Positions 1 through 30,506 of a DNA stretch of 30,506 bases are shown here, in pieces. A program made the position numbers and the translations under genes. Origin of the DNA: a virus. The stretch lies in IMG/VR virus record IMGVR_UViG_3300044606_000094, positions 1 through 30,506 of that record; one strand, 5' to 3'. Below the pieces are notes generated by a model that saw only the letters and a program-made list of their open reading frames with translations, was not told the DNA's origin and ran no database searches. Each line of letters opens with the position of its first letter. The first letter of the stretch is position 1.

Positions 1-36
1 AATTGCCTATTTTTAGATTTGATGTAAACCTACCAT
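1..36. repeat. Terminal direct repeat, copy 1 (identical to 30471-30506); marks circular assembly or terminal redundancy
   Basis: Exact 36-nt identity between window start and window end, read directly. Confidence 0.9.
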
Positions 37-4247: not shown

Positions 4248-6133
4248 ATAGTTGTATTACCTGCCTTTTTAAGTCCAACCTTATAATTTACCTTTGCTAA
4301 TTCAACAGCTGATAGAACGCCTGACCTTGTAGCCTTTGCAAGTTTATCAGCTATCACTGATATATCTGTTTCAGATGTCCCGCCTATTGTTATGTTTTGT
4401 GAAAGGGTTATGTTAGGAGCTCCTATTCCAGCACCTGCACCTGCAGGGATAAGTGAGGATGGCATAGGAACAGGATTATTCTTAATAGAATTAACCACAT
4501 CAGCAGGGATAACCTCCTCGCCTTTATGTAATAGATACGGTCCCGTTTCAGGTATATATCCACCTTCTTTACGAGTGCCTAACAAAAATTTCTCTGCCAT
4601 ACCACCAAACCCTAATCCAGTCAGAGCCTTAAATAATAACCATTTTGCTATCATCTGTGAAACCATAGAGATAAAAGAATTTAAAATGCTTTTAAAAATA
4701 CCACTTAATAATTTTTTAAAATTGTCAAACATATTTCCTGATGACTTTATAAATGTTTCTATTGCTGATGACATTCCAGATATTGTAGATGACCACATCG
4801 CATCCCACGCCTGTGCCCATCCCATACCTGATGATTTCATTCTATCAATAGATTGCAAGAATGACCCTGCCATAGTCGCATTATCACGAGCATATATTTC
4901 CTGAGCTCTAATCATAAGAGCTTCCTTTTGCTCTAATGTTTTCTCATCCCAAGAACCCTGCTCACCATATATAAATTGTAAATAACTTAATTCTGCCTCA
5001 CCTTTTGCCGATAGATACCATTCATCAACTTCTTTTAATTTTCTTTCTGCTTGTTTTTTTGCTTCTGCTAATTCCTCTTCATTTATTGTAGGTGCAGGTT
5101 TTGCTGCAGGTTTTTCAAGAGGTTTAGGTGCAGGTTTTGCTGCAGGTTTTGCAGCATTCTCTTTTGCTATTGCTTTTTCTAATTCTATTTTTGTATCAGT
5201 TAAATTTTTTAAAGTAGTAGAATAATCAAGCCACTGCTTATTTGATATAACATTTGATGTTTGTGCTTGTAAATCTATAATCTTTTGTAAATTTGCTCTA
5301 TATATTTTTATTTGCTCATTAGTAGCATCAAGTCTTATTTCATTCAAACTTTTACCAGCATTACTTGCTCTCTCTTCTGATTTTGTTATTTCTTCAAACC
5401 AGCCAGTTACAGATTCTAATTTTTCTAACCAAAAATCTATTACAGGTATTAATTCCTTTCCAATTCTTTCCTTTAAATCACTTATTCTATTTTCAAAAAC
5501 TTTTAATTTACCGCTTGTTGTTTCTGCTTCTGTTGTAGCGATATTAAATCCATCAGCCAAAAGTTTAGTAACAGCTGCAGCCTTCTCTGTTTCGTCTGTC
5601 ATAGAGCGGAGCTGAGGGATATATCGCTGAAGCATCGTATAATCACCTTGACCAGCAAGAGCGACCATTTTAATAGCACTATTCAAATCAACACCATATG
5701 CCTTTGAAAGTCCAATCGCTTGTTTTGTAGCTTCCCCTATCTTATCAGCAGATATGCCCATTGACAAACCTAACTGCATTACAGCAAGAGCATCCTCATC
5801 GCTTACAGTAGTTATCTTTTGGATTTCAGAAGCTAAATTTTGCAATTGATTAGAAAGCGAATCGCTATATATTCCTTGTGAACGAAGTTGCTGATTAAGA
5901 CGAGCAACAGCTTCCTCTGACTTTGCATATTCATTCCAGCAATCTTTTGCAAAGTCTATTGTTTTATATATTGCAGCACCGCCTGCGAATAAACCACCGA
6001 TTTTTGTGAATGTAGATTTTAAATTTGATGCTGAATCATCAGTTTGATTGATATGACTTTTTGCTTCTTCCAAACCTTTCGGGTCAAATAGAGTTCCAAG
6101 TCGTATGTAGAATTTAGCGAATTCTCCAGCCAT
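4244..6133 (-). CDS. Tail tape measure protein
   Basis: 629-aa, helix-rich, with a low-complexity AAKPAAKPAPKPLEKPAAKPAP stretch; lies between the chaperone pair and distal tail genes. Confidence 0.8.
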   Translation of the reverse strand: MAGEFAKFYIRLGTLFDPKGLEEAKSHINQTDDSASNLKSTFTKIGGLFAGGAAIYKTIDFAKDCWNEYAKSEEAVARLNQQLRSQGIYSDSLSNQLQNLASEIQKITTVSDEDALAVMQLGLSMGISADKIGEATKQAIGLSKAYGVDLNSAIKMVALAGQGDYTMLQRYIPQLRSMTDETEKAAAVTKLLADGFNIATTEAETTSGKLKVFENRISDLKERIGKELIPVIDFWLEKLESVTGWFEEITKSEERASNAGKSLNEIRLDATNEQIKIYRANLQKIIDLQAQTSNVISNKQWLDYSTTLKNLTDTKIELEKAIAKENAAKPAAKPAPKPLEKPAAKPAPTINEEELAEAKKQAERKLKEVDEWYLSAKGEAELSYLQFIYGEQGSWDEKTLEQKEALMIRAQEIYARDNATMAGSFLQSIDRMKSSGMGWAQAWDAMWSSTISGMSSAIETFIKSSGNMFDNFKKLLSGIFKSILNSFISMVSQMIAKWLLFKALTGLGFGGMAEKFLLGTRKEGGYIPETGPYLLHKGEEVIPADVVNSIKNNPVPMPSSLIPAGAGAGIGAPNITLSQNITIGGTSETDISVIADKLAKATRSGVLSAVELAKVNYKVGLKKAGNTTI

Positions 6134-16031: not shown

Positions 16032-16298
16032 TTAATTTATTAGTGTGAAAACTATTTTTTCAAAAATACCAGTATAATTTGGATAGAGATTATCATAAAC
16101 CTCCTTCATTTCAGGAGGGATTAAAAATTGTGTCTTATCAATTATTTTTACTTTGGCGAAAGGTGGACGTGGTCCTACTGTTAAAGTAATAATTTCTCCT
16201 ATATTAGGATTTCTGTTACTTTTTTTACGAATAGTATAATTTTTTTCACCTGACAATATTGGTTTAACATATTTCTCTTTGAACCATAAAGATTTCAT
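16032..16298 (-). CDS. ASCH (PUA-like) domain protein
   Basis: 88-aa; KYVKPILSGEKNYTIRK resembles the ASCH core; strong RBS AGGAGG; start overlaps the stop of the upstream gene (ATGA). Confidence 0.55.
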   Translation of the reverse strand: MKSLWFKEKYVKPILSGEKNYTIRKKSNRNPNIGEIITLTVGPRPPFAKVKIIDKTQFLIPPEMKEVYDNLYPNYTGIFEKIVFTLIN

Positions 16299-19585: not shown

Positions 19586-20546
19586 ATTTCTCCTCTATTT
19601 CTTTATCTGTCATTTTTATCATATTAGGCAATTTCTTTTTGCCATTGCCAAGATTTATATATCGCCCCTCTAAAACTTTTGGCATATTGGTAGGCCTGAT
19701 AAGCCATTCAAAATCAGCCCGCCACCCGTGATCGTTCTCACCAAGAAGAAAAGGCATATTTTTAACATCATTAAAATATTTCTCCCACCATTCAAGATTA
19801 TTCCTTTCCTCCTTGTTTTCGTTTATCCTTGCCTTAAGACAACTTTTTCGTTGCTTATTAAATATTTTACATTCGGATAGATAACTACCTAAAATATTAT
19901 TATAACTATTTTTAATGTCTTCCAATAACTTATCTATATCATTTAAATTTTGTGATTGTTGTTTTATTGGTTCTGTTGGTTCAGGTTGAGGTTGAGTTTC
20001 AATTTCATTTTTTATCTCTCCCTCTTTGGGGGGTAGGGGGGTATAATCTTTTATATTATTATCATTTATCTTATTATCCTTTATTAGATGGGTCATATTT
20101 GATACTTCTGAATGGTCATTTTTGATACTTCTGAAGGAACATTTTTGATACTTCTGAAGGTTCATATTTGTTAGTTCTGAATTATATTTTTGATAGTTTG
20201 TTTTTTCTGTTAAAATTATAAATCTTATTTTACCACCGCCATTTTTTATTATTGTTTTAGTTTCTATGAAACCATTTTCTTTTAATTCTTTCAGGGCTCT
20301 TTTAATTCTAATTTCATTGACATTGAACATCTTGCATAAATGTTCTGTGCTAAAATAGAATTTATCTGATTTATAACTTATAACAAAAGCCAATATTTTA
20401 AGTGCAGTTCCTGATAGGTCTTCCTGATATAGCCAATCAGGTATAACAAGAAATCTTAACTTAAATAAAGTTTCTTGGCTTTCTTTCAATAATTCTAACT
20501 CTTGCTTATTTATCTTTACCTCATTATTTATATTTTCGTTTTCCAT
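19566..20546 (-). CDS. Replication initiator / replisome organiser (N-terminal winged HTH, C-terminal conserved phage domain)
   Basis: N-terminal HTH-like LSGTALKILAFVISYKS...IRIKRALKELKENGFIE; C-terminal GWRADFEWLIRP...KVLEGRY; iterons embedded in the linker; partner loader gene follows. Confidence 0.6.
   Translation of the reverse strand: MENENINNEVKINKQELELLKESQETLFKLRFLVIPDWLYQEDLSGTALKILAFVISYKSDKFYFSTEHLCKMFNVNEIRIKRALKELKENGFIETKTIIKNGGGKIRFIILTEKTNYQKYNSELTNMNLQKYQKCSFRSIKNDHSEVSNMTHLIKDNKINDNNIKDYTPLPPKEGEIKNEIETQPQPEPTEPIKQQSQNLNDIDKLLEDIKNSYNNILGSYLSECKIFNKQRKSCLKARINENKEERNNLEWWEKYFNDVKNMPFLLGENDHGWRADFEWLIRPTNMPKVLEGRYINLGNGKKKLPNMIKMTDKEIEEKYAKFDK
20093..20200. repeat. Iteron array: about 4.5 tandem copies of a 23-bp unit (CATWTTTGATACTTCTGAA-like), putative replication origin
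   Basis: Tandem copies start at 20093, 20116, 20139, 20162 and 20185, flanked by an AT-rich stretch (20032-20092) and a G-tract GGGGGGTAGGGGGG (20018-20031); the 23-bp period is not a multiple of 3. Confidence 0.6.
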
Positions 20547-24444: not shown

Positions 24445-24762
24445 TTATTTTATTTTTTCTAATAATCCCAGTTCATAAGGGATTAACTTTATCTCATCAG
24501 TAGACAAGACTTTACCTTCAGGAAGTCTTGTAAGCACCCTGAAAACAAGAGCTTTATCCTCTGTTTCCATCTTTACCTGTAATCTATTCGTTGGGATTTT
24601 AATTTCCAATAAACAGCTCATAAATTCAGCAGTAGCCTGATGACCAACTGCTGAAGTAAACTCCCCCTTAAGGAGCTCTTTAGCCCCTTCAAGAGAAATT
24701 TTATTGAACTTATATTCACCCCAGTCTGTTAAAACTGGAGTATTAAGAACATACAACTTCAT
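24445..24762 (-). CDS. Hypothetical protein
   Basis: 105-aa ORF, start overlapping the HTH gene stop. Confidence 0.4.
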   Translation of the reverse strand: MKLYVLNTPVLTDWGEYKFNKISLEGAKELLKGEFTSAVGHQATAEFMSCLLEIKIPTNRLQVKMETEDKALVFRVLTRLPEGKVLSTDEIKLIPYELGLLEKIK

Positions 24763-24986
24763 TTTTCCTCCTGACTTTGTTTTACTTTTTGTAATGTCTT
24801 TATGGCCTTTTCTCTGTCATAAAAACAAACAGATCGCCCGTTTATGATTTTTATGTGACGGGGAATCTGCGAACCTTTCAGAATGTATATTATTTTTGCA
24901 TATGACATTTTGAAAAGTTTTGCCAATTCTCTATTTGTAATTTCCTTTTTATTTTTTATCTTTTCCATATTAACATATATTAACAT
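24759..24986 (-). CDS. HTH DNA-binding regulator (Cro/repressor-like); likely true start ATG at 24968 (MEKIKNKKEITNRELAKLF...)
   Basis: HTH ITNRELAKLFKMSYAKIIYIL; the listed ATG at 24986 lies inside the promoter spacer, while the ATG at 24968 is 8 nt past the -10 with no SD. Confidence 0.55.
   Translation of the reverse strand: MLIYVNMEKIKNKKEITNRELAKLFKMSYAKIIYILKGSQIPRHIKIINGRSVCFYDREKAIKTLQKVKQSQEEK
24970..24983. promoter_or_regulatory. Operator-like motif TTAACATATATTAA, copy 1 (overlaps the -10 and start of P5; part of a tandem ATTAACATAT x2)
   Basis: Identical 14-mer recurs at 25060-25073; near-palindromic TTAA-N6-TTAA. Confidence 0.5.
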
Positions 24987-25006
24987 ATTTTAATTTAGTT
25001 TGTCAA
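24977..25006 (-). promoter_or_regulatory. Sigma70-type promoter P5 (TTGACA, 18 bp, extended -10 TGnTAATAT), leaderless for the HTH gene
   Basis: -35 at 25001-25006, -10 at 24977-24982. Confidence 0.5.
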
Positions 25007-25034
25007 GTGCCTTTTGATACTTTATACCTTTTTA

Positions 25035-25090
25035 AAATAAAAATCGCACCAGCCACCTGTTAACATATATTAAAAATCAAATGGCTGGTA
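25035..25090 (-). terminator. Terminator after the small HTH gene (8-bp stem ACCAGCCA / TGGCTGGT, large loop, U-rich tail)
   Basis: Stem at 25048-25055 and 25082-25089; the loop contains the second operator copy; the minus transcript continues UUUUUAUUUU. Confidence 0.5.
25060..25073. promoter_or_regulatory. Operator-like motif TTAACATATATTAA, copy 2 (in the terminator loop)
   Basis: Exact 14-mer repeat, 90 bp from copy 1. Confidence 0.5.
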
Positions 25091-25101
25091 TGTTGTCATC
25101 A

Positions 25102-25260
25102 TTACTTTTTTTTAATTATATTTAACTTTCTTTTTGTTAGTCCAAGTTTTTTAGCCCAATAATGAATTACACGAGTGCTTACTCCTAACTTTTTAGCCAA
25201 CTCAACCTCACTTGTTGAGTTGAATAATTTAATGAACTCTTTGTCGCTTATCGTTTTCAT
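25102..25260 (-). CDS. Small HTH protein not in the track (52 aa, MKTISDKEFIKLFNSTSEVELAKKLGVSTRVIHYWAKKLGLTKRKLNIIKKK)
   Basis: RBS AGGAGG then ATG at 25258-25260; clear HTH (ELAKKLGVSTRVIHYW); terminator directly downstream. Confidence 0.55.
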   Translation of the reverse strand: MKTISDKEFIKLFNSTSEVELAKKLGVSTRVIHYWAKKLGLTKRKLNIIKKK

Positions 25261-26687: not shown

Positions 26688-26816
26688 ATCATCCTCTTTT
26701 TATCTCCGCCTGCCGTTTTTTTTAAAAATCGGTCAGGGCTTACGAGATTTTTTCTTTTCTTTTTGCCTTATCTTTTTTGCTTTGCTTTTAAGAGAACTCT
26801 TTTTCCTTATACTTAT

Positions 26817-26845
26817 ATTATAGCAGACTATTGTTATTTTGTCAA
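26817..26845 (-). promoter_or_regulatory. Sigma70-type promoter P6 (TTGACA, 17 bp, TATAAT)
   Basis: -35 at 26840-26845, -10 at 26817-26822; part of a 35-bp block nearly identical to the one at 27975-28009. Confidence 0.6.
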
Positions 26846-26987
26846 GTCTTTTTTTTTATATTTTGTTTTTTCGTATTGACTTAAATCAATATGACATTTA
26901 TCAATATAAATAAAATAAACCATTGACAAACAAATAAAAATTATTTCACTTTTTTACTTTATTATTTTTGATTTTTGATATGATTAA

Positions 26988-29772: not shown

Positions 29773-30506
29773 TTAAAATATTCTTGTAACCGCAAAATAG
29801 CTAAAAATTGGACGAAGCACTAAATTGCTTCCAACAGTATATTTAACAAAAGTTTCTATATAATCATTTACATTAAGACAAGCAGGAACTGCCACGCCAA
29901 AAGTAAGCCCGCCATGTGCGTTTGGCCCACTTGTACTCCCTTCTTGATATATGAGACCATTTATATTAAGTGCTAAAAACTTATCTGACACTGTGCCATC
30001 CCCACCCTTAAATAAATTAGCATTAACTGTAATTAAATAACACCCGTTTTGCGTAACAATATATTTATCGTTTGTTGTGTCATAATATCCATTTTTGTTA
30101 ATAATTATGTTATCCCAATCAACCTTATAATAAGTATTATCCGCTGGTAATGTTTGCTCCGAACTCCTTTTAGCAAAAAACACTGCTCCGTTATATGATA
30201 AAATTCCATTAGTAGTTATATTTACAATATACCCGTCGCTTGAATTACTATTACTATCAATAGTCAAAGCATACTGCTGGCTTGAATTGGCATTAATTGT
30301 TATACTTGAATTAAATACACTGTTATTCTGATATTTATTCTGCCCAGTCCAAGTTTGAGTAGCAGATAACACAGCATCACCGCCACCAGCAGGACTACCC
30401 CAAGATACAGTTCCTGAACCATTTGTTTTTAGGAATTGACCATTTGACCCATCAGCGGTTGGTAGTGTATAATTGCCTATTTTTAGATTTGATGTAAACC
30501 TACCAT
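29773..30506 (-). CDS. Tail fibre protein, 3' part with C-terminal C1q/TNF-like globular domain (in frame with 1-742 across the circular junction)
   Basis: Frame stays open from 30468 to the listed ORF at 30372 (checked). C-terminal sequence YKVDWDNIIINKNGYYD...KYIVTQNGCYLITVNA resembles a C1q-type jelly-roll head. The listed start at 30372 is a GTG inside the open frame. Confidence 0.65.
   Translation of the reverse strand, partial: GRFTSNLKIGNYTLPTADGSNGQFLKTNGSGTVSWGSPAGGGDAVLSATQTWTGQNKYQNNSVFNSSITINANSSQQYALTIDSNSNSSDGYIVNITTNGILSYNGAVFFAKRSSEQTLPADNTYYKVDWDNIIINKNGYYDTTNDKYIVTQNGCYLITVNANLFKGGDGTVSDKFLALNINGLIYQEGSTSGPNAHGGLTFGVAVPACLNVNDYIETFVKYTVGSNLVLRPIFSYFAVTRIF
30471..30506. repeat. 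Terminal direct repeat, copy 2 (identical to 1-36)
   Basis: Exact 36-nt identity with 1-36; repeat may extend beyond the window edge. Confidence 0.9.

Follow-up and report, generated by a model that had tools for sequence, protein, structure and literature searches.

Whether a short AT-rich sequence repeated between two small phage genes is an operator, and which protein would then act on it, is the question raised by a 133-bp gap in the IMG/VR virus record IMGVR_UViG_3300044606_000094. The whole 30,506-nt stretch, an entire metagenomic contig, is hereafter called the window, and all coordinates refer to it unless stated otherwise. The gap separates the gene (25260-25102) encoding a 52-residue helix-turn-helix (HTH) protein, HTH52, from the gene (end at 24759) encoding a 69-residue protein, HTH69, and is the junction of two co-directional early operons. 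A first-pass annotation had described a 14-mer occurring in two exact copies 90 bp apart, a terminator and a leaderless HTH gene, and had interpreted them as an autoregulated repressor/Cro-type circuit lying on one strand. All of the coordinates proved correct, and the anatomy was borne out: a terminator, a promoter, repeats over its -10 element and start, and a leaderless-type HTH gene are found on the same strand.

The circuit that we propose, with an even chance of being right, is that HTH69 negatively autoregulates its own promoter through two overlapping copies of the repeat, named sites B and C. RNA polymerase carrying the host sigma-70 factor and arriving from the upstream operon would be halted, at least partly, by the hairpin terminator (25090-25034), and an extended -10 promoter (25006-24977) would restart transcription about 0-3 nt from the ATG at 24968. 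HTH69, the first product, would be made from an mRNA with no or almost no leader and would bind the 10-bp-phased TTAAnATATG units of sites B and C, which lie over the spacer, the -10 element and the start point. Binding would block RNA polymerase, resulting in negative autoregulation or shut-off of the operon. Site A, a further copy located 80-90 bp upstream, would be auxiliary; it might contribute cooperativity or serve as a read-through roadblock, and is not required by the module.

Repeats and promoter of the HTH69 gene

Read on the minus strand, the gap contains the TAA stop codon of HTH52, a hairpin (25090-25047), GCGAUUUUUAUUUU, TTGACA, an 18-nt spacer, TGtTAATAT, 8 nt and the ATG at 24968, in this order (Table 1). 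The exact 14-mer, TTAACATATATTAA on the plus strand and TTAATATATGTTAA when read on the minus strand, occurs at sites A and C. A third copy with one mismatch, TTAACATATTTTAA on the plus strand, constitutes site B. Sites B and C have one TTAA in common and are 10 bp out of step, together reading TTAACA-N4-TTAACA-N4-TTAA on the plus strand. The same region contains ATTAACATAT twice in tandem (24969-24988), and Tandem Repeats Finder reports a repeat at 24967-24993 with a period of 10, 2.7 copies and 94% matches. Each 14-mer is a 12/14 palindrome (TTAA-n-ATAT-n-TTAA) and also one direct-repeat unit with a conserved, asymmetric G. The degenerate form TTAANATATNTTAA has just three matches in the 30.5-kb window, corresponding to sites A, B and C. 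A fourth ATATGTTAA (16264-16272) stands alone within a coding region, and a fourth TTAA-N6-TTAA (25112-25125) is not conserved in relatives.

The predicted promoter of the HTH69 gene is near-consensus and of the extended -10 type. Because the ATG at 24968 is located 8 nt past the -10 element, the mRNA should start 0-3 nt before it. AGGAGG is found 6-9 nt before the ATG of most neighbouring genes, whereas no Shine-Dalgarno sequence precedes either in-frame ATG of HTH69. A leaderless or nearly leaderless HTH69 mRNA, the 5' end of which is placed by promoter geometry, is a well-supported prediction. Leaderless translation of a phage regulator is known from lambda cI, transcribed from PRM. The distant relative L006 has the same layout, TTGACA-17-TAAAAT-10-ATG, again with no Shine-Dalgarno sequence.

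The ATG at 24986, which is the choice of gene callers, was rejected as the HTH69 start. It lies between the -35 and -10 elements, hence it cannot be on a transcript from the predicted promoter, and the aligned N-terminus of the L006 homologue corresponds to a start at 24968. Also discarded were antisense promoters on the plus strand that would rely on TTAACA, since they have no usable -10 element.

Table 1 Features of the gap and its flanking genes, in minus-strand order.
Feature	Position	Strand	Remarks
HTH52 gene	25102-25260	minus	Open reading frame of 52 residues; strong Shine-Dalgarno sequence (AGGAGG)
Predicted terminator hairpin	25047-25090	minus	13-bp lower stem, 4-nt bulge, apical AU-rich mini-hairpin
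Site A	25060-25073	not assigned	TTAATATATGTTAA on the minus strand; exact match; tip of the terminator hairpin
U-tract	25034-25043	minus	UUUUUAUUUU; starts 3 nt past the stem
Predicted -35 hexamer	25001-25006	minus	TTGACA; invariant in all relatives, also in L006
Site B	24980-24993	not assigned	TTAAAATATGTTAA on the minus strand; covers the promoter spacer and the first -10 bases
Predicted extended -10	24977-24985	minus	TGtTAATAT (TAATAT at 24982-24977); 10/12 consensus matches, TG present
Site C	24970-24983	not assigned	TTAATATATGTTAA on the minus strand; exact match; covers the -10 element and the expected transcription start
HTH69 gene	24759-24968	minus	69 residues; first gene of the recombination/replication operon

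Conservation in related phages

The relatives fall into three groups. L002, L003, L005 and L081 are about 90% identical to the window and share the HTH52-hairpin-promoter-HTH69 layout. L004 is also about 90% identical, with a different upstream region, and L006 is distant. Other searches returned few or no relatives, whether INPHARED phages were compared by blastn, IMG/VR was queried with the B116-like protein, RadC, RecT, a DNA word and an HTH69 alignment, or GTDB genomes were queried with RecT. L001, an unrelated B116-like locus, was set aside, as were four more distant RecT phages (L007, L008, L162 and L163), whose different upstream architectures are uninformative.

When the window is aligned with the four relatives that share its layout, 1 of 38 motif columns is variable, versus 13 of 87 columns elsewhere in the intergenic region (one-sided Fisher p 0.036). 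The lone variable motif column is the degenerate fifth position of site C, substituted in L002 only, and the variable columns outside the motif include the terminator stem, bulge and U-tract. Site B is invariant in six sequences and aligns with positions 28-41 of L006.

L004, a 34.7-kb contig, retains the -35 hexamer, the spacer, sites B and C and the HTH69 gene. Its upstream region is unrelated, and homology breaks off about 5 nt upstream of the -35 hexamer (junction region 5760-6004 of L004), placing the point of mosaic exchange exactly at the upstream edge of the promoter. Neither tblastn nor the gene table revealed an HTH52 homologue in the 12.9 kb of this contig that was searched. Since L004 keeps sites B and C across an unrelated upstream module, the two sites are passed on together with HTH69, and site A goes with the HTH52/terminator module. 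This is in keeping with the earlier proposal of operator-like repeats tied to a DNA-binding protein.

L006 encodes an HTH69 homologue with no more than 51-54% identity; identity of the coding DNA is 61%, and the GC content is 46% versus 30% in the window. The L006 sequence TTAAAATATATTACGATATGTTAA nonetheless aligns with sites B and C of the window at 22 of 25 positions (shuffle p about 0.001). The -35 and -10 hexamers of L006 lie one 10-bp unit further upstream, TACGAT is read at the position of the -10 element of the window, and the start codon is the ATG within the second unit. The repeats again overlap the -10 element, the start point and the ATG. As the hexamers have shifted by one unit and the repeats have been kept, the latter are conserved independently of the promoter hexamers, still covering the core promoter.

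Two observations concern gene calling in these sequences. The HTH69 homologue of L004 was not called by the Logan gene caller, and in the other relatives gene callers start HTH69 at the upstream in-frame ATG within the promoter spacer.

Arguments for and against an operator

Because the repeat is not striking within the window, where its statistics are weak, the case against chance rests on the intergenic and promoter position of the copies and on their conservation in relatives. Several points weigh against autoregulation through these sites. Of Markov-simulated windows, 13-19% contain an exact 14-mer pair less than 200 bp apart, and 16% contain three copies of a 9-mer within 110 bp. The motif is AT-rich and of low complexity, and a 21-base version of it has more than 120 unrelated exact matches in metagenomes. 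TGTTAATAT occurs twice, once in each of sites B and C, and part of the conservation could reflect the promoter, not an operator. No more than seven related sequences have come to light, and six of these are about 90% identical; L006 offers just 44 nt upstream of the ATG. HTH69 has no relevant Pfam match even at E-values up to 10, and its DNA-binding role rests on the predicted fold. The distances from site A to sites B and C, 80 and 90 bp in the window and 79 and 89 bp in the four relatives that have site A as well, are no whole number of 10.5-bp turns. Finally, the near-consensus promoter is also compatible with activation or architectural roles.

The simulated frequencies, the unrelated matches and the shared TGTTAATAT would equally be accounted for if there were no dedicated operator and the copies simply arose from the way promoters and terminators are built in AT-rich DNA. 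Sites B and C would then be a duplicated extended -10 element, site A the self-complementary, AU-rich tip of a hairpin (the motif is exactly the apical mini-hairpin), and the identity of the 14-mers the outcome of chance or of a small local duplication. We consider this explanation rather unlikely. Conservation does not track the hexamers, as seen in L006; site A shows no change in five sequences, in which the adjacent stem, bulge and U-tract are variable; and a stretch of 124 bp holds all three places in the 30.5 kb that match the degenerate motif.

Scanning three public collections with TTAAAATATNTTANNATATGTTAA gave more than 150 matches, of which just one, L081, encodes an HTH69 homologue. 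The motif is unusable as a specific probe.

Predicted structures of HTH69 and HTH52

HTH69 models as a MerR/Xis/BldC-type winged helix and lies outside any curated sequence family. The AlphaFold2 model, a confident one (predicted local distance difference test, pLDDT, 86.7), consists of a strand, two helices, a beta-hairpin wing and a C-terminal helix of 17 residues, with neither a long coiled-coil dimerisation helix nor an effector domain. This is the topology of the small winged-helix proteins of the MerR superfamily (strand-helix-turn-helix-beta-hairpin wing), and the model superposes on solved members, including the DNA-bound forms of Xis and BldC, which bind direct repeats, and of TnrA and GlnR, which bind palindromes. 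The modelled fold is distinct from Cro/HTH_3. At the sequence level, a search of the PDB gave nothing, and phrog_10045 was the sole profile match (E 0.007).

The protein is very rare, with two clusters among 5.8 billion and three matches in a representative library of 1.8 billion, of which P0124 alone is a plausible homologue. No substitution separates the main clade from L006 in the recognition helix (MS-AKIIY-LKG) or in the wing (NGRSVC-Y).

HTH52 passes the Pfam MerR_1 model marginally (22.8 bits, cut-off 21.6), matches MerR with an E-value of 1e-5 and does not match HTH_3. Its AlphaFold2 model (pLDDT 79) has four helices and no wing, and no significant fold match was obtained in the structure search.

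Both flanking proteins had been put forward as ligands of the motif. HTH69 fits this role; nothing links HTH52 to it. HTH52 could bind the motif and switch the next operon on or off as part of a temporal cascade, since it carries a MerR-type HTH signature and its gene is directly upstream of site A, with which it is always inherited. We hold this to be very unlikely, given that L004 keeps sites B and C and HTH69 with no HTH52 homologue in the part searched, that the HTH52 model is a generic four-helix bundle, and that L006 also keeps sites B and C (its upstream gene lies beyond the available sequence). No shared or repeated motif able to serve HTH52 is present in the upstream early promoter region (26688-26987).

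A host factor might instead recognise the repeats and tie the phage promoter to host physiology, either a nucleoid protein or an OmpR/PhoP-type response regulator, the direct-repeat boxes of which resemble the 10-bp-phased TTAACA repeats. Response regulators bind direct repeats, a point also taken up in PMC5859096. There is little to commend this possibility, as L006, with a GC content that suggests a different host, retains the motif beside a conserved phage-encoded recognition helix and wing, and no other promoter-like region of the window has it.

HTH69 could also bind the repeats with a different outcome, activating the promoter by MerR-style distortion of its spacer, or bending DNA for recombination or replication in the manner of Xis or RacA. 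Among its top structural matches are the classical MerR activators SoxR, BmrR and TipA, together with two architectural proteins, pSK1 Par and RacA; site B falls within the spacer, which is 18 nt long in the window and in L004. Either role is nevertheless a long shot. The predicted promoter, having TTGACA and an extended -10 element, is near consensus as it stands; the spacer has the optimal 17 nt in L002, L003, L005 and L081; the sites reach over the -10 element and the start point and are not centred on the spacer; HTH69 has no long coiled coil or effector domain; and an excisionase role is at odds with the absence of an integrase from the genome.

Comparison with known regulators

Negative autoregulation by HTH69 would closely resemble the action of gp1 of GIL01, a 58-residue winged HTH protein that represses its own strong promoter, P2, via a direct repeat in tandem that closely follows the -10 element (PMC11511902). 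In both cases a tiny winged-helix protein (58 and 69 residues) is the product of the first gene behind a strong promoter, and direct repeats in tandem, with a 9-10 bp period, are found at the -10 element or directly behind it. Like gp1, HTH69 is predicted to be a MerR/BldC-like winged HTH protein with no coiled coil. The arrangement of a regulator gene directly behind a promoter whose -10 element is overlapped or abutted by repeats is found in the window, in L004 and in L006. The two systems also differ. No sequence similarity between gp1 and HTH69 is detectable. The GIL01 operator, GGGACAAA-c-GGGACAAA, seeds a filament in which about seven subunits span 65 bp, and GIL01 itself is a linear plasmid prophage (a betatectivirus of Bacillus thuringiensis) in which LexA is involved. 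The repeats described here, in contrast, are AT-rich and have an extra copy in the terminator, and repression, experimental in GIL01, is here a prediction.

BldC of Streptomyces binds AT-rich direct repeats head-to-tail (PMC5859096), and D29 Gp36 is another phage regulator of this kind (PMC12266134). Cooperative head-to-tail binding to phased AT-rich direct repeats is common to BldC and to recombination directionality factors of the Xis/Apl type (lambda Xis, Pukovnik Xis, 186 Apl and D29 Gp36), and Apl and D29 Gp36 act as phage transcription repressors. Unlike these proteins, HTH69 has an extra 17-residue C-terminal helix and matches no Pfam model of the BldC/Xis families; the present genome has no integrase, and each site is also a 12/14 palindrome. 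HTH69 could occupy the repeats as a symmetric dimer, as TnrA and GlnR do, or head-to-tail, as BldC and Xis do, the two modes being equally possible.

Classical MerR proteins, equipped with a long coiled coil and an effector domain, act as activators at promoters with 19-20 bp spacers; none of these features is seen here, and TnrA and GlnR need glutamine synthetase, for which there is no corresponding feature. Lambda Cro and CI share with HTH69 the position of a small DNA-binding protein as the first product of an early operon, and several related sites that overlap the promoter of that operon. In contrast to lambda, there is no partner repressor, divergent promoter pair or two-promoter tripartite operator, the fold differs, and no lysogeny module is seen. 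The 'repressor/Cro-type' label of the first-pass annotation was therefore abandoned. Divergent genes, an operator shared between them and a Cro-type fold were each looked for and not found, and the locus is not a CI/Cro switch. The proposed mechanism resembles that of the small winged-HTH autoregulators of phages.

The locus is a fairly ordinary phage control region and leaves the view of phage regulation unchanged. If autoregulation is confirmed, an orphan family, of which only about seven sequences were found among the billions searched, would join the growing set of tiny MerR/Xis/BldC-like winged-helix regulators of phage transcription. It would also provide a compact, portable promoter-operator-regulator cassette with no ribosome-binding site, a possible self-limiting expression module.

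Terminator hairpin and site A

The hairpin begins 11 nt past the TAA stop codon of HTH52 and has a folding energy of -20.4 to -20.8 kcal/mol (z -3.2 to -5.5). Stable, GC-containing and trailed by a U-tract past the end of a gene, it has the make-up of an intrinsic terminator. It was not listed by a simple terminator scan, the loop limit of which (8 nt) is exceeded by this hairpin. Site A is exactly the apical mini-hairpin, UUAAU-AUAU-GUUAA. No RNA family was found at the locus in an Rfam search.

The hairpin is kept in L002, L003, L005 and L081, each with a C-U mismatch in the stem (z -1.4 to -2.3), and the U-tract is degraded to UCUUUUAUAUC in L002 and L003. None of the stem changes among these four relatives is informative with respect to compensation. 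In all five sequences with the HTH52/terminator module, site A is unchanged, next to the variable stem, bulge and U-tract; judged by this alignment, the terminator looks less constrained than the motif. Both site A and the hairpin are absent from L004, hence site A, conserved where present, is dispensable and at most auxiliary. It is improbable, in our estimate, that site A has a dual role, its RNA capping the upstream terminator and its DNA binding HTH69 to control read-through (by a roadblock or assisted termination), or the hairpin RNA titrating HTH69. If this were true, a single 14-mer would couple the termination of one operon to the autoregulation of the next.

A promoter-like sequence, TGGACT-18-TATAAT, was noted within the 3' end of the HTH52 gene (25115-25144, minus strand), and a transcript from it would start just before the hairpin. 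The match is probably due to chance, because its -35 element is poor and poorer still in the relatives.

Genomic setting

A 36-bp exact direct repeat at the ends of the window (1-36 and 30471-30506) indicates a circular assembly of about 30,470 bp. The genome is that of a siphovirus-like phage, and its minus strand holds all credible genes. Annotated structural genes encode a terminase, portal, protease, major head protein, adaptor, major tail protein and tape measure, and the early region encodes VRR-NUC, RadC-like and RecT proteins, exonucleases, an O-like initiator, a DnaC-like loader and a ParB-like protein. No integrase, CI-like repressor or S24 protein was found in the annotation or in profile searches of the complete genome.

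HTH52 is the last gene of the upstream early operon, preceded by a 74-residue gene, a 230-residue gene and the RadC-like gene. The downstream recombination/replication operon starts with HTH69, followed by the B116-like gene, RecT, an exonuclease and replication genes. The STIV B116-like gene (Pfam PF08960, E 1e-28; 24445-24762, minus strand), located between HTH69 and RecT, is missing in the close relatives (L002-L005 and L081), where HTH69 overlaps RecT directly. Because all close relatives lack it, this gene is a recent insertion in the present genome.

Other elements were identified elsewhere in the early region. A perfect sigma-70 consensus promoter, TTGACA-17-TATAAT with TG (26817-26845, minus strand), lies in a 300-bp gap about 130 nt upstream of the 74-residue gene and probably serves as the immediate-early promoter; its surroundings contain no repeated motif. 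In the GC-rich gap that separates the 74- and 230-residue genes lies a candidate type-P5 twister self-cleaving ribozyme (Rfam RF02684; 26398-26458, minus strand). The full model is matched, with a score of 33.3 bits that is below the gathering score of 37.6 (E 2e-4 in a 3.5-kb search), and minimum free energy folding is not significant (z -0.8).

Tandem repeats also occur within two genes. The O-like replication initiator gene (20546-19566) contains 4.5 copies of the 23-bp repeat TCATTTTTGATACTTCTGAAGGA (20093-20195) and, alongside, a 15-bp AT-rich repeat (20042-20084); this region looks like a lambda-style origin, with iterons within the initiator gene. A 12-bp repeat, TGCAGGTTTTGC, is present in 5.3 copies (5093-5156) within the tape-measure gene (6133-4244).
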